A model generated the notes under the pieces. It saw only the letters and a program-made list of their open reading frames with translations, was not told where the DNA came from and searched no databases. From an uncultured Syntrophaceae bacterium (GTDB lineage: Bacteria; Desulfobacterota; Syntrophia; Syntrophales; UBA2192): a DNA stretch of 64,000 bases. The DNA lies in the NCBI GenBank assembly GCA_964628025.1, contig CAZVLL010000005.1, forward strand, positions 68,729-132,728, read 5' to 3'. Shown in pieces: positions 25,582 to 58,047 of the stretch. The first letter of the stretch is position 1. Each line of letters opens with the position of its first letter. The translations under genes were made by a program, and so were the position numbers.

Positions 25582-26676
25582 ATGGGCTTCAACTGCGGTG
25601 TCATCGGCCTTCCCAACGTAGGAAAATCGACCATCTTCAATGCGCTGACCTGTGCCGGTGCCGAGGTGGCCAACTACCCCTTCTGCACCATCGATCCTAA
25701 CGCGGGGATCGTCTACGTGCCGGACCACCGGCTCGAGAAAATCGCATCTGTCGTCAAGCCCCCCAAGGTCACCTATACGACCATGGAATTCATCGACATC
25801 GCCGGGCTCGTAAGAGGGGCCAGCAAGGGCGAAGGGCTTGGCAATCAGTTTCTCGGTCATATCCGTCAGGTGGACGCCATCCTCCACATTGTCCGATGCT
25901 TTGACAATCCGGATATCGCACACATCTACGGCCCCATCGATCCGGTCCGGGATATCGAGATCATCAACATGGAGCTCATCCTGGCGGACCTCGAGACCCT
26001 GGCAAAGCGCATTGCCAAGACGGAAAAGATCATCAGAACGGGCGATAAAACGACCCGGAAGGCCCTGGAGGTCTACCAGCGGTTCGCGGATGCCCTGGGC
26101 CGGGGAATCCCGATGAGAAACATTCCCATACACGAAGACGACCGGGAGATCCTCGATGAGGCGCAACTGCTGACGTCCAAGAAGGTCCTCTATGTGGCCA
26201 ACGTCAGCGAAAAAGTTCTCAAGGAGGACGGTCCCTACATCTCGAAGGTCAGGGACATGGCCGCAAAAGAAGGCTCCGGCGTCGTGGTCATTTGCGGCGA
26301 TCTGGAGATGGAGATCGCCAAGCTCGACAAGGAGGAGCGAAGGGATTTCCTGGCAGACCTCGGGCTGGAGGAGTCGGGACTTCAGCAACTCATCCGCGAG
26401 GGTTACACCCTGCTCGATCTCATCACGTTCTATACGACCGTGGGCCCGGAGCTTCGGGCCTGGACGATTCGAAAGGGAACGAAAGCGCCCCGGGCAGCGG
26501 GGAAAATTCACACCGACATGGAAAAGGGTTTTATCCGGGCCGAAGTCCTTCACTATGAGGATTTCCTTCGCGTTGGGGGTATCGCGCAGGCCAGGGAAAA
26601 GGGTCTTCTGCATTTCCAGGGAAAAGAGTACGATATCCTTGACGGAGACATTGTCTATTTCCGGTTCAACGTTTGA
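25582..26676 (+). CDS. ychF: redox-regulated ATPase YchF
   Basis: 364 aa. GIIGLPNVGKSTIFNALT-type G1 motif and a TGS-like C-terminus. Confidence 0.95.
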   Translation: MGFNCGVIGLPNVGKSTIFNALTCAGAEVANYPFCTIDPNAGIVYVPDHRLEKIASVVKPPKVTYTTMEFIDIAGLVRGASKGEGLGNQFLGHIRQVDAILHIVRCFDNPDIAHIYGPIDPVRDIEIINMELILADLETLAKRIAKTEKIIRTGDKTTRKALEVYQRFADALGRGIPMRNIPIHEDDREILDEAQLLTSKKVLYVANVSEKVLKEDGPYISKVRDMAAKEGSGVVVICGDLEMEIAKLDKEERRDFLADLGLEESGLQQLIREGYTLLDLITFYTTVGPELRAWTIRKGTKAPRAAGKIHTDMEKGFIRAEVLHYEDFLRVGGIAQAREKGLLHFQGKEYDILDGDIVYFRFNV

Positions 26677-28410: not shown

Positions 28411-28671
28411 CAAAAAAAATTGGTGGATGACGGACGGCTCATCCACCAATTTTATATTAAAAGAGAGGTTATTCCCCAACCCCCTCCCTTTTCTGTAGGG
28501 GGTCGGCGGATGGAAAGGAGGGAACCAAAAACCATCCGCCGATTCGCAAACCTAAAGCACGATCAGATGCTTGGCGACTATTTATGAGACCTTTAGAGAG
28601 GATCTACCTTTCCTATTCGATAAATTCATTATCTCTCTTTATGTTAAAGGTCAGTCTTCCAAAGGTCTCGT
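28411..28671 (-). ncRNA. candidate sigma54-dependent sRNA 1 (about 260 nt)
   Basis: Bounded by the sigma54 promoter (28697..28682, predicted start about 28671) and an intrinsic terminator (12-bp stem 28450..28419 plus U7-8). Contains the conserved hairpin 28542..28503. There is no credible ORF, and the next gene downstream is on the opposite strand. Confidence 0.45.
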
Positions 28672-28681
28672 ATTTGTATTT

Positions 28682-28697
28682 AGCAATAACAATGCCA
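28682..28697 (-). promoter_or_regulatory. sigma54 (-24/-12) promoter, TGGCATTGTTATTGCT
   Basis: The minus strand reads TGGCAT-N5-TTGCT, with GG and GC separated by 10 nt. It sits inside a 24-nt box (28680..28703) that matches 39462..39485 at 23/24 positions. Confidence 0.6.
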
Positions 28698-28760
28698 CAA
28701 AATAATAATAAATAATTACGAACTATTACAGTATTAGCCGGTGCTGACCCGTAAAGGGTT

Positions 28761-28869: not shown

Positions 28870-31020
28870 CTAAGTGACCGGATCTCCTCCCATTCCAACC
28901 TTCTTTAATTCTCGTATCAACGCGTACCTTGATATATTCAACAACTGGGCCGCTTTTGTCTTGTTGCCCCTGCTGAGCTCCAGAGCTCTTGCAAGGATGC
29001 GCTCCTTGATCTTCCCCGTAAGTTTCTCAATGGCAAGCTTGTAATCGATCCTCTCTGTTGCCGATGCGAGGGAGAGCAGTTCATCGACATGGACGACCGG
29101 ATCCTGTGCGGCCGACGATTTGATCTCTGCCGGAATGTTTTCCGGTGTGATGTAACGACCCACCCCGCGAAGGATCATGATCCGTTCAATGATGTTTTTG
29201 AGTTCGCGAACGTTTCCCGGCCAGGAGTATCGACGGAGAATCTCCTCGGCTTCCTTGGCAACACCCTTGACCTTCTTGTTAAATTTTCTGTTGAATTCTT
29301 CCACGTAGTGGCGCGCGAGCAGTACCAGGTCGTCGCCCCGCTCCCTCAGAGGCGGGAGAATAACCGGCACCACGCTGATACGGTAGAAAAGATCCTCACG
29401 GAAGGACCCTTCCGACACCAGCCTCGACAGATCCCGATTGGTGGCAAAGATGAAGCGCACATCGACAGGAATGGTCTCGTTGCCGCCGAGGCGACGGATA
29501 TATCCGTCCTCCAGCATCCGGAGAAACTTGGCCTGAAGGGGAAGACTCATGTCGCCGATCTCGTCAAGGAACAGTGTTCCCGCGCTTGCATATTCGAGAA
29601 GACCAATCTTCCGCTTCCTCGCATCGGTAAAGGCACCGGCCTCGTATCCAAAAAGTTCGCTCTCCAGAAGGGTGCCGGGAATGGCGGCGCAGTTCACATC
29701 GACAAAACGCTTCTGACTCCTGAGGCTCTGCCGGTGGATGGCCCTGGAGACCAGCTCCTTGCCCGTTCCGCTCTCGCCCTGGATGAGGATATTCGTATCG
29801 TGCTTGGCCACTTCCTCGATGACATGGAAAATGCCCATCATCTTTTTGGACTTGCCCAGGATGTTGTGAAAGCCGAGCAGAATGTCTTCCCGCTCCTTAA
29901 GCTTCTCCACCTCCGTCTTCAGCGACTTGGCCTCGATGGAAAGCATCGACTGCATGATGGCGCTGTCGTAGGACGTGGCGGCGTTGTTGACAAGGATGTC
30001 AAGGACATTGATCTGGTCCTGGGAATAGTTCCCCGCCCTCATTCCCAGCAGGAGAACTCCTTTAAATCGATCCTTCACCTTCAGGGGAATCGCAACCTCG
30101 GAGGGATAACCCTCATAGAGGGGCACGGCGCTGCCTGTCTCCGAATCCGGTTCCTGGACGGTGATGGTATCGTGGTCGAGGGCACTGCGGATGATCGTTT
30201 TGTCGATACGGGTGCTGTACTCATTCTTTTCGTCGATGAACCCCCGCTCCCCGTCATTGATGAAAACCCGATTCTTCTCGATGTCGAGAAAGTAGATGAG
30301 AGCCTTTTCGGCCTTCCCGATCCGCAGAGCACTGCGGATCAGGATCTCGTGGATTCGCTCGATCGAGTAGGTGGAATTCAGGTCCGAGACGGCTTCCTGC
30401 AGGATGAGCAATTGATCGATCTTTTCACGATTGATCTCGAAGAGGCGCGTGATGTGTGTGATGATGCTCACCTGGTTGGCAAAGGTAAGCAGGATATCGA
30501 TTTCGTCGAGGGAGAACCGCGTTTTCTCCTTGGTCCAGACGGCGATGATGCCGATGACATCGTCCTCGATCCTCAGGGGTGCATAAAAGGTGGATCCGCG
30601 CTTGTAGAAGGCGGATATTTTCCGGTCTGTCTCCGTTGTCCGGGGGTCCTTCTCGGAGTCCTCGAGGGCAATGTACTTTCCCGTCTTGGCCACCCGCGTT
30701 TCGAAGCTGTCATGTTTCTTGAGGTTCAGGTGCACCGAAAAAGCTCTCCGGGCCTCCTCGTCACTGTAGTTCTTCACGACCCGCGTGATCAGGTTTTCCC
30801 GGCTTTCGTCGAGCAACAGGATAATCCCCCGGTCAAACCCCATGGAACCGACAACTTCATCAAGGATCTTGCCGAGGATGTCTTCGACACTGGAGGGGGC
30901 CGTGAGAAATGTGCTGATCTGGAATATCCCCTTGATCAGCTTGTCTTTGTCGATGCTGTAGGCCGACGATGTCCTGATGGGGGGGGGGATCGTTCCGCCC
31001 TGCTCGATGATTCGCGCCAT
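28870..31020 (-). CDS. sigma54-dependent transcriptional activator (GAF-GAF-AAA+-Fis HTH)
   Basis: The track ORF is 28870..31116. I trimmed it to ATG 31020 (MARIIEQGG...) after AAAGGTGGA. Walker A GESGTGKE; sigma54-contact loop ESELFGYEAGAFTDA (GAFTGA variant); C-terminal HTH GNKTKAAQLLNISRYALIRELKK; two GAF-like N-terminal domains. Confidence 0.9.
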   Translation of the reverse strand: MARIIEQGGTIPPPIRTSSAYSIDKDKLIKGIFQISTFLTAPSSVEDILGKILDEVVGSMGFDRGIILLLDESRENLITRVVKNYSDEEARRAFSVHLNLKKHDSFETRVAKTGKYIALEDSEKDPRTTETDRKISAFYKRGSTFYAPLRIEDDVIGIIAVWTKEKTRFSLDEIDILLTFANQVSIITHITRLFEINREKIDQLLILQEAVSDLNSTYSIERIHEILIRSALRIGKAEKALIYFLDIEKNRVFINDGERGFIDEKNEYSTRIDKTIIRSALDHDTITVQEPDSETGSAVPLYEGYPSEVAIPLKVKDRFKGVLLLGMRAGNYSQDQINVLDILVNNAATSYDSAIMQSMLSIEAKSLKTEVEKLKEREDILLGFHNILGKSKKMMGIFHVIEEVAKHDTNILIQGESGTGKELVSRAIHRQSLRSQKRFVDVNCAAIPGTLLESELFGYEAGAFTDARKRKIGLLEYASAGTLFLDEIGDMSLPLQAKFLRMLEDGYIRRLGGNETIPVDVRFIFATNRDLSRLVSEGSFREDLFYRISVVPVILPPLRERGDDLVLLARHYVEEFNRKFNKKVKGVAKEAEEILRRYSWPGNVRELKNIIERIMILRGVGRYITPENIPAEIKSSAAQDPVVHVDELLSLASATERIDYKLAIEKLTGKIKERILARALELSRGNKTKAAQLLNISRYALIRELKKVGMGGDPVT

Positions 31021-31060
31021 GAATCCACCTTTTTGTGCGTGACGGTTTTCAGTAACGCGA

Positions 31061-31089
31061 TTTATAGCAGTATGCTTGTTATTTTTCAA
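31061..31089 (-). promoter_or_regulatory. candidate sigma70-type promoter of the activator gene (TTGAAA-N17-TATAAA)
   Basis: Minus strand: -35 at 31089..31084 and -10 at 31066..31061. Confidence 0.4.
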
Positions 31090-31096
31090 CATGTTC

Positions 31097-31113
31097 CGTG
31101 CGAATCGTGCACA
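31097..31113. promoter_or_regulatory. candidate autoregulatory site CGTGC-N7-GCACA
   Basis: CGTGCGAATCGTGCACA, 8 bp upstream of the -35 of the activator promoter. Confidence 0.4.
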
Positions 31114-31242
31114 CACAGAAAAAGTTCAGGGTATAGTGAAGGGTAGAGATACAAGCGTGTAGCGTGGAACAGGCAGCGTCAAAAAGGGATTCGAAATGCC
31201 GCATGCAGGACGCGATACGGCCTTGTGCGGCTTTCGGCTGTT

Positions 31243-33273
31243 TCAGGCTTTGTCGTAGCGGAGGAATTGCATGGTGAAGATCGCCCGACCCTGGGTGGCA
31301 GAGCGCAGGTCTGTGGAATATCCGAAAAGCTTCCGGAGAGGCACATTCGCTTTGATCTCGGTGACGGGTCCCTTCGGCGTTACGGACTCGACTTCCCCCT
31401 TTCGGGCGTTGATGTCGCCGATCACCTCTCCCATGAAGTCCCGCGGTGTGAGAATATCAACCCGCATGATCGGCTCCAGGAGGACCGGACCAGCCTTGGA
31501 GCAGCCGTCCCTGAAAGCCGTGGCCGCGGAAATTTTGTACCCGACGGGAGAGGACTCTCCTTCCCTGAAGGATCCCCCCGTAATGCGGACCTTCACGTCC
31601 TGCACGGGGTAACCCGCCATGACACCGCTGAGAACCGCCTCTCCGAGGGACTCTTCGATGACAGAATGGAATTCCTCCGGGATGGTCTCGGGCATAAGCT
31701 CGTTTTTCATCTCGATACCGGTGCCTCTCGGGAGAGGCTCCAGAACGAGTTTCACGTGGCCGAAGTGCTTCTTCTCTCCGAGCTCGCGCTCGAAGCGCCC
31801 TTCCGTCTCGACGGCCTTCTGTATCGTCTCCCGGTAAACGACGCGGGGCTTGCCAACGTTCACATGAACGTTGTACTCCCGCAGCAGCCTGTCCACGACG
31901 ACTTCGAGATGGAGCTCCCCCATCCCCGAAATAAGGGTCTGAGCCGTTTCCTCGTCGTACTTCACTTTCAGCGTGGGGTCTTCGTCGGTGATCTTTTCGA
32001 GCACACCGGGCAGCTTTTCCTGGTCTCCGGGGGTCTTCGCCTCGATGGCCTGACTGATGACGGGATTATAGAATTCGATGGATTCCAGGATGATGGGTTT
32101 CGATTCGACGCAGAGGGTATCCCCGGTGGTGCTGTCTTTGAGCCCTGCGATGGCAATGATGTCTCCCGCTCCGGCCACGTCGATGCGCTCACGCTTGTTG
32201 GCGTGCATCTTCAGAAGCCGTGCAACCTTTTCCTTCCGGCCCTTTGTAGCGTTGTAGACCTCGTCACCGGCCTTGAGCAGACCGGAATAGATGCGGGCAT
32301 AGGTGATCTTGCGGCCTTCCATCATGGATACCTTGAAGGCAAGCGCCGTAAAGGGCTCTCTGTCGCTTGCCTCGCGTCTCTCTTCGGCCTTGGTCACGGG
32401 GTTGATCCCCTTCACGGGCGGGACCTCCTCCGGCGACGGAAGGAAATCGACGACGGCATCCAGGATAGGCTGGATTCCCTTGTTCCGCAAAGCCGCCCCA
32501 CACAGGACCGGGACAAGCTTGAGGGATACCGTTGCCTTTCGGATGGCCCGGATCAACTCGATATCGGAAATGGGAATCTCGCCCAGATACTTATCCGCAA
32601 TTTCGTCGTCGACCTCTGCAAGCGTCTCCAGCAGCTTTTCGTGCCCGGACTCCGCCTCGGCACGGAAGTCATCCGGGATGTCGGACACATCATACGCCGC
32701 TCCCAGAGTGCTCTCCTGCCAGGTAAGCAAGCGCATGCGGATCAGATCAACGATACCCCGAAAATGTTCCGCCTCTCCGAGAGGCATCTGAACAGGCAAC
32801 GGAGCGGACAGGAAGCGCTCCTTCATCATCGCGATGGCTCCAAAATAGTCGGCTCCGATACGGTCCATCTTGTTGATGAAGGCGATTTTGGGAACCCCGT
32901 ATTTGTCGGCCTGGTGCCAGACTGTCTCGGACTGGGGCTCGACCCCTTCCACGGCCGAGAACACGACGACGGCCCCATCGAGGACCCGGAGGCTCCGTTC
33001 CACTTCGATGGTGAAGTCCACGTGCCCCGGTGTATCGATGATGTGGACTTCGTGGTTTCTCCAGTCACAGGTGGTTACGGCGGAGGTGATGGTGATGCCT
33101 CGTTCCTGCTCCTGGGGCATCCAGTCCATGACGGCTTCACCGTCGTGCACTTCACCCATTTTATAAGACTTGCCCGTGTAGAAGAGAATCCGCTCCGTCA
33201 CGGTCGTTTTTCCCGCATCGATGTGGGCAACGACCCCGATGTTGCGGATTCTGGAAAGCTTCACTCTTGCCAT
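31243..33273 (-). CDS. elongation factor G paralog (stand-alone, outside the str operon)
   Basis: About 676 aa. G1 [17 protein letters not shown] and NKMD motifs, then EF-G domains II-V. ATG 33273 is preferred over TTG 33279. Confidence 0.9.
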
Positions 33274-33360
33274 GGGCAAACCCAGTCCTGTCCGGCCGGA
33301 GGCATGATCAAGGCGACTGCAGAACGGATCATCTCTGCCGACCCGTTTCGGAGTTCCGCC

Positions 33361-37483: not shown

Positions 37484-38896
37484 TTACTTCATGGGCGCTA
37501 TATACGGAATGGTCAGTGCAAAGTACCAGCACAGGAAAAAGACAAGCGGGATGTGAATGAGCATCTGCAAAACAGAATAGCCGACGAGATCCCTTGCCTT
37601 CATGTGCAGAATCCCCAGGAGCGGAAGCATCCAGAAGGGGTTGAGCAGGTTCGGAAGCGCCTCTGCGGCGTTGTAGATCTGGACGACCCATCCGAGGTTC
37701 ACCCCGTGCTGCACGGCCGCCGTGAGGACGTAGGGAGCCTCGATGACCCACTTGCTTCCGCCGGAAGGGATGAAGACCCCGAGGACGGCAGAGTAAAGGG
37801 CCACCAGCAGCGAGTAGGTCTCTTTCGTCGTGATGGCAACAAAGAGATCCGCCAGCCACTTGTTGATCCCCGTGCCAACGATCATGCCGAAGATCACGGC
37901 GTAGAAGGGAAATTGGATGAGCACGCCACCCGTGGCCGGCACGGATTGCGCCACGGCCTTGAGGAACCGCTTGGGCCGCCAGTGCAGCAGCATGCCCACG
38001 GTGATGAAGATCAGGTTGTAGTTGTTGAGATCCAGCGCCGCGATGGGCCCCCGGGGTTCCTTCTGGAAGAAATCGAAGAGATACCAGGCAAGAATACCGC
38101 CCACAAGAACGATTAGGGCAGGGCTGTACTCGAGCCACTCGCCGGGCTTCTGCCGGGGCTCAAGGCTCGTGTCGATGGGATCAAATTTCAAGCCGTAGTC
38201 CTCGACCGTTTTTGCCCGCTCGGGCTTGGGAGCTGAGAAGTAAGCGATGACGACGGAAACAACGATCAGGGCAACGGCGGTCCAGAATGTCGGCCAGATA
38301 AAGAGGGTCTGAGTCAGGGGGATGAGTCCGCTGATTTCATAGAGCTTGGGCGGAATCGATCCCTTGGTGGCCATCATGAGGGCGGCTGAGGATGAAAGGC
38401 CCAGCGCCCAGACGGCGCCCAGCCCCAGGTAGGCGGCCGCACCGGCTGCGCGGAAATCCATGCCCTTGATAGTGCGCGACATCTCGCGGACGAGAAGTCC
38501 GCTGAAGATGAGGCTCAAGCCCCACGAGATGAGCGAAGTAATCATGGAGAAAAAAGCAATCCATGCGATCGCCGCCCTGGGATTCGTGGTGATGCCGGCC
38601 ACCTTCCTGATGACCCAGTAAACGGCCGGGGTGGTTGCCACGACATAGCCACCGATGATGATCAATGCCATTTGCATCGTGAAGGGAATGAGAATCCAGA
38701 AGGACTTTCCTCCCTCCCAGACCAGCTTCTGGGGGCTTTCCCCGATGAGAAGACCGAATACAAAGACAAAGACGATGCCGATCAAAGCAAATACCCAGGC
38801 ATCGGGAAACCACTTTTCGCTCCAAGCGGCCAGCCAGAGGCCGAAACGCTCTAGGGCATTTTCCCCCTGCTCAGCTTTTTTGATGTTCTCTGCCAT
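37484..38896 (-). CDS. atoE: short-chain fatty acid transporter (AtoE family)
   Basis: 470 aa, polytopic. The N-terminus ...LERFGLWLAAWSEKWFPDAWVFALI... and overall pattern match my recollection of the AtoE/TIGR00366 family. AAAGGAGGGG RBS. Confidence 0.8.
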   Translation of the reverse strand: MAENIKKAEQGENALERFGLWLAAWSEKWFPDAWVFALIGIVFVFVFGLLIGESPQKLVWEGGKSFWILIPFTMQMALIIIGGYVVATTPAVYWVIRKVAGITTNPRAAIAWIAFFSMITSLISWGLSLIFSGLLVREMSRTIKGMDFRAAGAAAYLGLGAVWALGLSSSAALMMATKGSIPPKLYEISGLIPLTQTLFIWPTFWTAVALIVVSVVIAYFSAPKPERAKTVEDYGLKFDPIDTSLEPRQKPGEWLEYSPALIVLVGGILAWYLFDFFQKEPRGPIAALDLNNYNLIFITVGMLLHWRPKRFLKAVAQSVPATGGVLIQFPFYAVIFGMIVGTGINKWLADLFVAITTKETYSLLVALYSAVLGVFIPSGGSKWVIEAPYVLTAAVQHGVNLGWVVQIYNAAEALPNLLNPFWMLPLLGILHMKARDLVGYSVLQMLIHIPLVFFLCWYFALTIPYIAPMK

Positions 38897-39155
38897 GCTT
38901 TTCTACCCCTCCTTTCGTTAGAATCGTTCATGCATCCCGACACGGAAGCGCAGCTGCATACGATCGCCTTGCAAATCGAATCGACACGGGCACAGCGCCG
39001 CCCCCACCTGATTAATTGTGTTGATCAACTCTCCGGGCACCTTATCGTTCCGCAGGGTATGAGGACAAAGAGAAATAATTCTTCGCCCGACAAGAAATCT
39101 GATAATTATAAACGGACTTGATACGGCCCCTATCCGCGATCACCCCCTTCCCCGG

Positions 39156-39199
39156 AAAAAAACAAAAAAAACCCCGTTCACAGGACCGTAAACGGGGTT
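39156..39199 (-). terminator. intrinsic terminator ending the sigma54 transcript, about 270 bp upstream of the atoE start
   Basis: AACCCCGTT/AACGGGGTT 9-bp stem, followed on the minus strand by U6-G-U7. Confidence 0.7.
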
Positions 39200-39453
39200 A
39201 TGTATCTTGTCCATCTCATGGTTGCAACACCACGGCAGGTGACTTCTGTTTTTATTTTCTTCTCATTCCAGCATGCCTATAACAGATTGATGATGTTTAT
39301 TCAATAGGATTGACAATTTTCCCTTTTGAAAGGGCATCGGTGGATGGAAAGGAGGGACCAAAACCATCCACCGATTAACCGCTTTCGAAAGGGGCGCCGG
39401 GAAACTTGGGGGTCTGCCAGGGTCTTTCTAATTTCCGTGAGCGCCACTAGTGC
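39163..39453 (-). ncRNA. candidate sigma54-dependent sRNA 2, or a terminator-containing leader of atoE (about 290 nt)
   Basis: Sigma54 promoter at 39479..39464 with predicted start about 39453, conserved hairpin at 39375..39336, terminator at 39199..39156. No credible ORF. Confidence 0.45.
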
Positions 39454-39463
39454 TCTCAAAGTT

Positions 39464-39479
39464 AGCAATAACGATGCCA
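39464..39479 (-). promoter_or_regulatory. sigma54 (-24/-12) promoter, TGGCATCGTTATTGCT
   Basis: The minus strand reads TGGCAT-N5-TTGCT. Paralogous to 28682..28697. Confidence 0.6.
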
Positions 39480-39615
39480 CAAAATCAGACCTCGACGAAA
39501 AAGTGATGGGCGTGAAGAAACAAATTTAATTGTTTAATTCAGAGCACTTGGAAAAATATTCATTGTGCCGGATCGGGGGAACAAAACGCTACGCTCGGAA
39601 CCGGATCCGGCAAAT

Positions 39616-39632
39616 TGTGCGATAAAAGCACA
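39616..39632. promoter_or_regulatory. candidate enhancer (UAS) site TGTGC-N7-GCACA
   Basis: TGTGCGATAAAAGCACA, about 137 bp upstream of the -24 element. It differs from 28847..28863 at one spacer base. Extra half-sites are GCAC at 39544..39547 and TGTGC at 39564..39568. Confidence 0.5.
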
Positions 39633-39793
39633 AATAGCGTTCAAATACCGCGAGCATACAGTGGACGGGGGCTTCACGGCTGTGCGAATATCGAACCTTT
39701 AGTGCTCCGCACGCACATTCAGGCCGTCCTTTCCCTCTTGACTCCGATCCTCAACAGAAATTCTCGCTTTTCGCGAGATAACATGTTTTCACC

Positions 39794-56847: not shown

Positions 56848-58047
56848 ATGAGCGAAGAGAGAAACGGAAGGCACCCGGTAACGGCAAACTGCGGGGTGGA
56901 AGGTCTGGCACGATTCAAGTCATTCCATCACATTCCGGAGTTCCGGATCGGAGGAACCTACAGCTTCGATGACCCGTCGTCCTGGGAATGCGGCGGTCCC
57001 GACGGCGTGACCCTGGAATCGCTCGGCGAAGGCTCCCTGCGCACGGCCTGCATCGCCGTCGGCACGCCCCATCGGGACGCAGACGGGCACATCGACAACG
57101 CCGTTCTTTTCAGCCCCTTTTACTCCGGCGATGCAACCCTGATGTATTTCTACTGGTACCGCGGTCAGGGAGGAAACGACTTCTGCGGCGGCCCGGTCGT
57201 GGGCCCCGGCGGACTGATCGACACGGATCGTTACTACGTCATTTTCCTCGACGCCCTCGGCCTCTGGGGTGCCGGCAAGCCGAGTGACGGTCTCGGCCTG
57301 CGGTTCCCGCAATACACCCTCATGGACTGCGTCCAGGCCAACTACCGGATGCTGCGGGACCACCTGAAGGTAAGCCGGGTGAGGCTCGCCACGGGAACCT
57401 CCATGGGTGCGATCCAGAGCTATCTCTGGGCCCTCATGCACCCGGGCTTTGTCGAGGCCATCATGCCCATGGGCGGTATCACGGAAACGGACGCCAACCT
57501 GCAGTGGCTCTTCCGCCTCATGTCGGCGGCCATCGAAAGCGATCCCGCATGGCGCGAGACCGGAGGCAATTACTACCACCTCCCGAAGGAAAAGCATCCG
57601 TGCCGGGGCGTCATGTTCGGTTGGTCGATCCTGTTCCACTCGGCCATGAGCTACGACTACCGGATCGAGATGGGCTGGGACGAGGTCCAGAAAGAGGTTT
57701 TCGCCTGGGAATTCCAGGGAAAGGAGGGAGCCCTCCTCATTCCTTACGGCCGAAATTACGATGCCGTCGACCTGCTGTACCGGAATCACGCGGGAAGGAC
57801 CCTGAACGTGACGCCGGACCTTCACCGCATCCGGGCAAGGACCCTCATCCTTCATGTGGCCAACGACCACTGGGTCCGGCTTAGCATGGCCCGGAAGGTC
57901 CACGAACGCATTCCCGGATCCGAGCTTTGCTCCTTCGAACACCCGCTGGGACACTATGCCCTCTTCCGGGCGCCGAATGAATTCCGCGACAGGATTGCAT
58001 TGTTCCTCGAAGATTCTTCCCCGAAGGCAACAGGAGGAAAACCGTGA
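56848..58047 (+). CDS. alpha/beta hydrolase (homoserine O-acetyltransferase-like fold)
   Basis: 399 aa. Nucleophile elbow GTSMGA and a C-terminal His region. The RBS is weak. Confidence 0.65.
   Translation: MSEERNGRHPVTANCGVEGLARFKSFHHIPEFRIGGTYSFDDPSSWECGGPDGVTLESLGEGSLRTACIAVGTPHRDADGHIDNAVLFSPFYSGDATLMYFYWYRGQGGNDFCGGPVVGPGGLIDTDRYYVIFLDALGLWGAGKPSDGLGLRFPQYTLMDCVQANYRMLRDHLKVSRVRLATGTSMGAIQSYLWALMHPGFVEAIMPMGGITETDANLQWLFRLMSAAIESDPAWRETGGNYYHLPKEKHPCRGVMFGWSILFHSAMSYDYRIEMGWDEVQKEVFAWEFQGKEGALLIPYGRNYDAVDLLYRNHAGRTLNVTPDLHRIRARTLILHVANDHWVRLSMARKVHERIPGSELCSFEHPLGHYALFRAPNEFRDRIALFLEDSSPKATGGKP

Follow-up and report, generated by a model that had tools for sequence, protein, structure and literature searches.

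Two kinds of bacterial regulator are already known: the sigma-54-dependent small RNA (sRNA) encoded beside its activator, and the sRNA with a loop complementary to Shine-Dalgarno (SD) sequences. Here we describe a new family of RNAs that has features of both. We start from an interval of about 330 nucleotides (nt; 39156..39485, read on the minus strand) in a 64-kb stretch of DNA from an uncultured Syntrophaceae bacterium, where it lies upstream of a gene for an AtoE-like short-chain fatty acid transporter. We refer to the whole 64-kb stretch as the window, and all positions are those of the whole stretch.

Several described systems come close to this locus. The Qrr1-5 RNAs of Vibrio, controlled by LuxO, are paralogous sRNAs that depend on sigma-54 and an enhancer-binding protein, share an invariant single-stranded region, and include one copy beside the activator gene. 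They are Hfq-dependent and about 100 nt long, their 32-nt seed is not anti-SD, and LuxO is a response regulator. CcsR of Rhodobacter and RsaE/RoxS of Firmicutes are further anti-SD sRNAs. In the alpha-r14/NfeR1 RNAs of alpha-proteobacteria, the hairpin stems diverge while the C-rich anti-SD loop, CCUCCUCCC, is ultraconserved; such loops are repeated within one RNA and occlude the ribosome-binding sites (RBSs) of transporter and metabolic mRNAs (PMC10746234). CrcZ and CrcY of Pseudomonas and Azotobacter are made from RpoN promoters activated by CbrB, with one gene 3' of the activator gene and a paralogue elsewhere (PMC6292655). The atoC RNA motif (RF01733) of delta-proteobacteria is a candidate cis-regulator (PMC2864571).

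The interval is the junction of two modules, in which the gene for what is probably a trans-acting, SD-occluding sRNA (type B) has been fused to the terminated leader of the transporter gene. An earlier, sequence-only reading had treated the sigma-54 promoter, hairpin and terminator as one unit. All of the features that it described were present where it had placed them, well above chance, and the flanking genes were the SCFA_trans transporter and acyl-CoA dehydrogenase genes that it had named. The unit itself did not hold together, as the terminator is part of a separate module that is 200-290 nt further downstream in two relatives (L010 and L027; related loci are given L numbers). Judged by comparison with these and other relatives, the promoter and hairpins are probably a genuine conserved sRNA gene, and their union with the terminator is a lineage-specific fusion.

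Module 1, the type B RNA gene (39479..~39321, minus strand), comprises a candidate sigma-54 promoter and two hairpins, P1 and P2. We analysed 17 distinct type B sequences, obtained a consensus fold from 13, and counted open reading frames (ORFs) and neighbouring genes over 14 genomes or loci. The promoter, TGGCATCGTTATTGCT (39464..39479, minus strand), has the form TGGCAC-N5-TTGCW, with the GG of the -24 element and the GC of the -12 element at the right spacing; standard spacing gives a predicted start at about 39453. The pattern TGGCAYN5TTGCW had exactly two matches in the 64 kb (39464-39479 and 28682-28697), versus 0.08 expected from shuffled sequence. The 24-nt box around the first, ATTTTGTGGCATCGTTATTGCTAA (39485..39462), differs from that around the second (28703..28680) at one position, and the match of 23/24 that had been reported could be read directly. 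The box was kept in 17 of 17 type B sequences and lies about 95 nt before P2. In all 11 loci for which the flank was available, the type B gene is divergent from an acyl-CoA dehydrogenase gene whose product is 92-98% identical.

P2 is an anti-SD hairpin with an invariant C-rich loop on a covarying stem. It has a 12-bp stem, ATCGGTGGATGG/CCATCCACCGAT (39336..39375, minus strand), and the loop TTTTGGTCCCTCCTTT, which reads UUUUGGUCCCUCCUUU at 39363..39348 and is complementary to AAAGGAGGGA. Using the loop and two closing pairs as query, we scanned 185,579 species genomes and obtained 43 stretches, 41 of which, from about 32 genomes, were kept; the other two, L019 (coding) and L020 (without the stem), were chance matches and were left out. 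In an alignment of 20 distinct hairpins, 98.8% of the stem cells were paired and 9 of 13 pairs changed on both sides; none of 500 shuffles equalled this, and the signal collapsed in slid control alignments. All loop bases in this set were invariant, apart from length differences of 1-5 nt, and the loop was invariant over about 60 copies from the roughly 32 genomes. G-U pairs were confined to the strand with CCCUCC, which fixes the transcribed strand. The covariance model, run on the window with filters off, found only two copies, at 63 bits (63.2; this locus) and 60 bits on the minus strand versus 29 and 27 bits on the plus strand. The earlier view that a sigma-54-driven RNA module recurs at this locus was supported. 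The hairpin reported at 39375..39336 was thus found, and its identity in loop with the first copy proved to be approximate: the first copy (locus 1, type A) has a loop of 18 nt, TTTTTGGTTCCCTCCTTT, with two extra U relative to the type B loop.

Other explanations of the hairpin were rejected. A 34-amino-acid (aa) ORF at 39263-39367 overlaps it, but this frame is in phase with a conserved small ORF (see below) only in L012, is out of frame in L005, and is shifted in type A because the loop there differs by 2 nt in length; the G-U pairs and covariation favour RNA structure. A repetitive extragenic palindrome (REP) or miniature inverted-repeat transposable element (MITE) was rejected because the hairpin keeps one orientation behind the sigma-54 and enhancer sites, its loop does not vary, and its G-U pairs are specific to one strand. 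A possible third copy in the window, TCCCTCCTTTCC at 57718, is within a coding region and has no hairpin.

The consensus fold of the 13 type B RNAs also contains P1 and a covarying lower extension of P2. P1, GGCGC..GGAAAU / AUUUCC..GGCGC (39394..39444, minus strand), has the stem GGAAAU/AUUUCC and a 25-nt loop. Within it, the C-rich sequence AAGACCCUG(A/G)CAGACCCC (39426..39409) was invariant in 13 of 13 RNAs, and pair 19-57 of P1 changes from AU to GC in three sequences. A short hairpin, CCCUU-UCAA-AAGGG (39321..39334, minus strand), ends the module in the window; in relatives, it is just before the start of the small ORF.

The type B promoter has putative enhancer sites in common with the promoters of related RNAs, and a candidate activator is encoded in the window. 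The proximal palindrome, TGTGCTTTTATCGCACA (39617..39631), is about 152 nt upstream of the sigma-54 box, and the distal one, GTGC-N7-GCAC (39702..39716), about 237 nt upstream; neither has a strand. There were six matches to GTGC-N7-GCAC in the window versus 0.85 expected, four of which are upstream of the two sigma-54 boxes, two per box. Among RNAs of types A, B, and C, the palindrome was found no more than 400 nt upstream of 32 of 34 boxes, at a position typical of each type, and the palindrome near -150 is also in L002, L005, L012, L015, L029, and L039. The alignments show that GTGC-N7-GCAC is shared as a candidate enhancer site across types A, B, and C.

Both RNAs in the window are presumably activated by an enhancer-binding protein with GAF, sigma-54 AAA+, and HTH_8 domains (28870..31116, minus strand; Pfam GAF/Sigma54_activat/HTH_8). 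The type B gene, with the same palindromes, is 10.8 kb from the activator locus. In nine of nine loci, type A immediately follows the activator gene on its 3' side, and orthologues of the activator (GAF-GAF-AAA+-HTH_8, 57-90% identity) are encoded directly upstream of type A, C, and D hairpin RNAs, at 20 loci. The adjacent GAF-domain protein presumably binds GTGC-N7-GCAC. Because the palindrome is common to types A, B, and C, and because types A, C, and D directly follow the activator gene, one GAF-domain activator probably drives types A, B, and C. This replaces the analogy to AtoC and the ato operon by which the promoter had first been judged plausible, as the enhancer sites are common with the sRNA beside the GAF-domain activator. 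The true start of the activator is probably near 31020 (MARIIEQ). There is a fifth GTGC-N7-GCAC palindrome at 31098..31112, about 80 nt upstream of that start, which suggests that the activator gene controls itself.

The type B RNA of most relatives contains a small ORF that has been lost from the window. In 10 of 14 type B loci (L003, L005, L010, L012, L015, L018, L026, L028, L029, and L039), an ORF of about 47 aa follows P2, about 55-200 nt past the hairpin, and is conserved as amino acids (M..YMDKRIKRCLSNPAILVLALVYLSS..K..WATQAL); these loci have their own terminator 3' of the ORF. By eye, the product looks like a single-pass membrane peptide. Neither this ORF nor the ORF of about 70 aa in types C and D had a Pfam match. 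The ORF is absent from the window (at 39320) and from L044, and in the L027 group (L027, L063, and L124) there is an unrelated, non-conserved ORF instead. These ORF-less copies represent three independent losses, and in all of them the promoter, the enhancer sites, P1, and P2 have stayed unchanged, which argues for selection on the RNA itself. By sequence, the cleanest stand-alone sRNA is that of L044, which has the promoter, P1, and P2, no ORF, and a terminator of its own about 100 nt past the hairpin (+104). Type A RNAs likewise have their own terminator; the first terminator after the type B RNA of the window is that of the transporter leader module.

The deletion junction in the window is at about 39320..39311, just downstream of the short hairpin. 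Module 2 begins 290 nt past P2 in L010 and 200 nt past P2 in L027, and the intervening DNA is deleted in the window. The alignment shows that this deletion took out the small ORF and set the type B RNA directly against module 2. What seems to be a unit of promoter, hairpin, and terminator can therefore be a recent fusion of two modules, which is a caution for reading such units elsewhere.

Module 2 (39310..39156, minus strand) is a conserved block that includes the terminator and belongs with the transporter gene. We aligned the window with L010 and L027, and then also with L018, L045-48, L063, and L124 (10 sequences). The order is a promoter-like box, an A-rich stretch, a 6-bp hairpin, and the terminator. 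The start block, CCTATTGAAT-N17-(TGT)TATAGG (39276..39310, minus strand), is conserved in the 10 sequences; with a -35-like TTGAAT at 39304..39299 and a -10-like element at 39281..39276, it would resemble a sigma-70 promoter with an extended -10, but it fails the criteria of a promoter scanner, as it has no T at -7. The 6-bp hairpin, CGUGGU/ACCAUG (39217..39234, minus strand), is in the consensus fold of nine sequences and shows little covariation. The intrinsic terminator, AACCCCGUUUACGG-UCCU-GUGAACGGGGUU followed by U8GU7 (39156..39199, minus strand; hairpin 39199..39170, 13 pairs counting G-T), is conserved with all of the relatives aligned. It had been placed about 270 bp before the start codon, and the distance is 274 nt to the ATG at 38896. 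Transcription from the sigma-54 start would meet this terminator before any other, which predicts an RNA of about 295 nt. Module 2 was found only upstream of close orthologues of the AtoE-like transporter gene, and it was co-oriented and directly upstream in 10 of 10 sequences that have it. Apart from the 6-bp hairpin and the terminator, the consensus fold of the nine sequences contained no structure, and in particular no antiterminator. Leader-peptide attenuation was considered and rejected, as a 13-codon ORF that ends in the terminator loses its frame in L048 and L124.

Beyond the terminator, a conserved leader continues for about 270 nt to the transporter start. The whole conserved leader is thus about 400 nt (39310..38897) and consists of the promoter-like box, a terminated segment of about 110 nt, and the stretch of about 270 nt. 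That stretch contains GGGGAAGG(G/A)GGUGAU, by eye a near-full complement of the tail of 16S rRNA, and no conserved ORF. No Rfam family matched the leader at 39310..38897, which could be a separate sRNA or attenuator. A 63-aa ORF at 38930..39121 (plus strand), a JGI gene call on the matching contig L001, is antisense to the transporter leader and is probably spurious.

The transporter gene (37484..38896, minus strand; SCFA_trans, Pfam 6e-89) is a plausible target of the type B RNA. The SD region before its start at 38896 reads AAAGGAGGGG; the segment GAAAGGAGGGG (38916..38906) is complementary to the P2 loop, and the SD itself is AAAGGAGGGGU (38915..38905, mRNA strand). The duplex of the loop with the transporter RBS, at -17.3 kcal/mol, was the second best among 61 crude gene calls of the window. 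In the clade with the unit upstream, the transporter RBS is GAAAGGAGGGAG, which forms 11 contiguous Watson-Crick pairs with the loop (-20 to -23 kcal/mol), versus -16.9 kcal/mol for a generic 16S tail. Most other transporter orthologues have an RBS that reads GAAAGGAG(A/G), and AAGGAGGG before a start codon was rare in 370 kb sampled. The RBS of the acyl-CoA dehydrogenase gene was rejected as a specific target (about 8 pairs by hand count, outside the top 25).

The proximity to the transporter gene is not a general property of the type B RNA. We examined 80 loci of transporter orthologues (70-96% identity) from metagenomes, 63 of which had at least 800 nt of upstream sequence. The unit was upstream in 6 of the 80, all L010- or L027-like, and in 4 of the 63. 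The window, L010, and L027 are the only cases in which the downstream SCFA_trans gene is a co-oriented orthologue; in nine other type B genomes it is a convergent paralogue (29% identity). A test suggested by the sequence-only reading, whether the module always precedes atoE-like genes, thus gave a negative answer: the type B unit is not co-oriented and directly upstream across its members, as an attenuator leader would be. In other lineages (L061, L069, L074-L078, L086, and L099), the orthologue of the acyl-CoA dehydrogenase gene (82-88% identity) is convergent and immediately downstream of the transporter gene, indicating that the link between the two genes is older than the position of the sRNA between them. 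Because there is no other terminator between the sigma-54 start and the transporter gene in the window, read-through into the transporter gene is possible in this lineage.

Based on these comparisons, we propose that the GAF-domain activator (28870-31116) would switch on the type B RNA together with its type A paralogue at about 28.5 kb. The type B RNA would then act in trans, its loop pairing with SD regions of the type AAAGGAGGG(A) and blocking the initiation of translation, and the C-rich loop of P1 could serve as a second seed. In the window, transcription would either stop at the terminator borrowed from module 2, yielding about 295 nt of RNA, or continue into the transporter gene. We favour this SD-occluding action in trans, for which the NfeR1-type sRNAs are a precedent.

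Several observations weigh against this proposal. The start site, the 3' end, and the dependence of the RNA on sigma-54 and the activator are all predictions. A small protein is also encoded by the RNA of most relatives, in which coding may be the primary role. Loop pairing does not single out targets, as any strong SD pairs with CCUCC; the complementarity to the transporter SD is real, and the sequence-only reading was right to caution about it, as this is the strongest canonical SD in the window. Phylogeny confounds the extra pairing found in the clade with the unit, and GGAGGGA also occurs in L049 and L097, where the unit is not upstream. For the C-rich loop, the only match in the 64-kb window was its own antisense sequence, and no target was found there. 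Invariance of all 16-18 loop bases also exceeds the needs of SD pairing, and could mean that the loop is bound by a protein.

We weighed the proposed action in trans against other explanations. The sequence-only reading had left the choice between a discrete sRNA and a leader. The whole element could be a cis-acting leader of the AtoE-like transporter gene, in which the terminator gates read-through and the anti-SD hairpin acts on the transporter SD. Indeed, the promoter, terminator, and gene point the same way in the window, L010, and L027, and in the window and L010 no further terminator separates them; the loop can form 10-11 contiguous pairs with the transporter RBS, and the 400-nt leader is conserved among the 10 sequences. 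However, 9 of the 14 type B genomes have a convergent gene as the next neighbour of an RNA that ends at a terminator of its own, and the unit is present at only 4 of the 63 transporter loci with at least 800 nt of upstream sequence. In addition, the same hairpin module is in RNAs of types A, C, D, and E with no transporter gene nearby, module 2 starts, after the hairpin, with a conserved promoter-like block of its own, and the consensus fold offers no alternative antiterminator. We therefore regard a cis-acting leader as unlikely. For the promoter and hairpins, the sRNA side of the choice is favoured by the comparative data and by L044, and a general role as transporter leader does not hold (the convergent gene in nine genomes, and 6 of 80 loci). 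A loss of function is less likely still. The copy in the window could be a decaying, functionless remnant of the 5' untranslated region (UTR) of an mRNA for the membrane peptide of about 47 aa, as the ORF is conserved in 10 of 14 type B loci and lost in the window, with a deletion junction directly after the short hairpin. The five ORF-less copies, from three independent losses, nevertheless have the promoter, both palindromes, P1, and P2 at consensus, and type A has the same hairpin without any ORF, so that we give this explanation the lowest probability of those considered.

The invariance of the loop also fits a decoy, an RNA whose loop resembles the 16S tail and titrates a protein that binds C/U-rich loops, or soaks up SD-containing RNAs globally. 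The loop, GAUCACCUCCUUUCU, can be likened to the 3' tail of 16S rRNA, which we take to be GGUC-CCUCCUUUCC, since the rRNA genes of this organism are outside the window. The 16-18 loop bases are invariant over about 32 genomes while the stem drifts, many genomes hold several copies, some RNAs hold two to three, and a stand-alone EF-G paralogue and YchF are steady flanking genes. The CrcZ/CrcY RNAs, which are sigma-54-dependent, act by antagonising a repressor, Hfq-Crc (PMC6292655). On the other hand, the conserved neighbourhood contains no gene for a candidate binding protein, the likeness to the 16S tail rests on general knowledge, and the known sRNAs with loops of the CCUCC type act by base pairing (PMC10746234). 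We consider a decoy improbable, to about the same degree as the cis-acting leader. A bolder version is that the loop mimics the 16S tail such that, under the signal sensed by the GAF activator, the RNAs compete with the 30S subunit for strong SDs or titrate a factor that recognises the tail. This would reprogram translation genome-wide in energy-starved syntrophs and make the linkage to EF-G and YchF functional; we view it as speculative, and less probable than a simple decoy.

The type B RNA belongs to a wider family, most of which is in the Syntrophales. The 41 stretches from the scan were mostly labelled Syntrophales, Syntrophaceae, or Syntrophus, and the rest were unclassified delta-proteobacterial, plus one with a Solibacteraceae label. 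The latter (L023, CAYQAS010000205.1) has the Syntrophales gene order, an activator at 58% identity, and a type C RNA, and was probably mis-binned. The type A sRNA of the window (28413..28697, minus strand) has its box at 28697..28682, the anti-SD hairpin at 28543..28502, and a terminator at 28450..28419. It is directly downstream of the activator gene, a placement kept in eight relatives. In type A, the box is about 150 nt before the hairpin, and there are also a long 5' hairpin, a G/C hairpin, and the terminator, with no ORF. The stem of the type A terminator (UUGGUGGAUG..CAUCCACCAA, 28419..28450) is a degenerate copy of the anti-SD stem that has lost the CCUCC loop (23 bits with model R1), which suggests an ancestor with two hairpins, like type C.

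In types C and D, from Syntrophus-like genomes, the promoter follows the activator gene. Downstream of the sigma-54 box come a small acidic ORF (about 70 aa; motifs DFFLS and FFLPE) and then one to three CCCUCC hairpins in the 3' UTR. Type C was found at L004, L011, L013, L021, L022, L030, L035, L042, and L043, and type D at L006, L009, and L038; in type C, the last CCCUCC hairpin is also the terminator. A sigma-54 box is missing from type E, whose copies at L031, L032, L034, L036, and L037 have the upstream motif AAATCAGA-N8-CATTG in common; L037 has two type E copies in tandem, 330 nt apart. Type E thus appears to be the same RNA module under a different promoter or regulator. In most Syntrophales loci, the activator-sRNA locus is flanked by genes for a stand-alone EF-G and YchF. 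In the window these are at 31243..33279 (minus strand) and 25582..26676 (plus strand); the EF-G (TIGR00484, 896 bits) is not encoded beside ribosomal-protein genes. In type E genomes, the hairpin RNA is directly after the EF-G gene, with no activator gene between.

Neither the window nor any of 17 related loci contained a match at gathering score to an Rfam 15 covariance model; the only hits had E values of about 1 and were on terminators. The family was described neither in Rfam 15 nor in the literature searched, in which no regulatory RNA was described for Syntrophales. These bacteria, including relatives of Syntrophus and Smithella, degrade fatty acids and aromatics in methanogenic systems. 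The analysis defines a circuit in which a sensor-activator, a DNA site, and at least two sRNA outputs with a portable anti-SD hairpin can be named, and the sRNA outputs adjoin genes for core acyl-CoA metabolism and short-chain fatty acid transport. One type C copy (L011) is in a genome labelled Syntrophus aciditrophicus. This organism is culturable, and the predictions are therefore open to experiment there.

The family shares some features with each of the described systems. RF01733 is likewise delta-proteobacterial and is named for atoC, a sigma-54 activator gene; its consensus terminator has the loop uuuCCCUCCUa, and type C RNAs also end in a terminator with a CCCUCC loop. In the window, the RF01733 model scored 19.9 bits (E = 1.4) versus a gathering score of 50, and aligned to the module 2 terminator and not to the CCUCC hairpin. 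A type C locus gave no match to it, and no match in the 17 loci reached gathering score. The RNAs here, rather than preceding the activator gene, follow it on the 3' side or are unlinked to it.

Like the Qrr RNAs, the family consists of several paralogous sRNAs with sigma-54 promoters and one invariant unpaired region, and one copy adjoins the activator gene; the Rfam search revealed no similarity to Qrr. The layout of types A and B is the same as that of CrcZ and CrcY, with one sRNA directly 3' of the activator gene and a distant paralogue with the same sites. There was no similarity to CrcZ or CrcY in sequence or covariance model, and no Crc-type family was among the Rfam matches. The conserved single-stranded parts of the RNAs here are C/U-rich, and no search was aimed at A-rich Hfq motifs. 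CbrB is a two-component response regulator, whereas the activator here has GAF sensor domains. CrcZ and CrcY antagonise the Hfq-Crc repressor (PMC6292655), whereas the RNAs here present CCUCC loops. No Rfam model of the alpha-r14/NfeR1-type families matched. In the hairpin itself, the likeness to NfeR1 is nonetheless one of kind, as the stems diverge around a C-rich anti-SD loop that is repeated in some of the RNAs here; the loops differ in sequence and length, NfeR1 has no sigma-54 promoter, and the hairpin module of the Syntrophales family is also found in the 5' or 3' UTRs of small ORFs.

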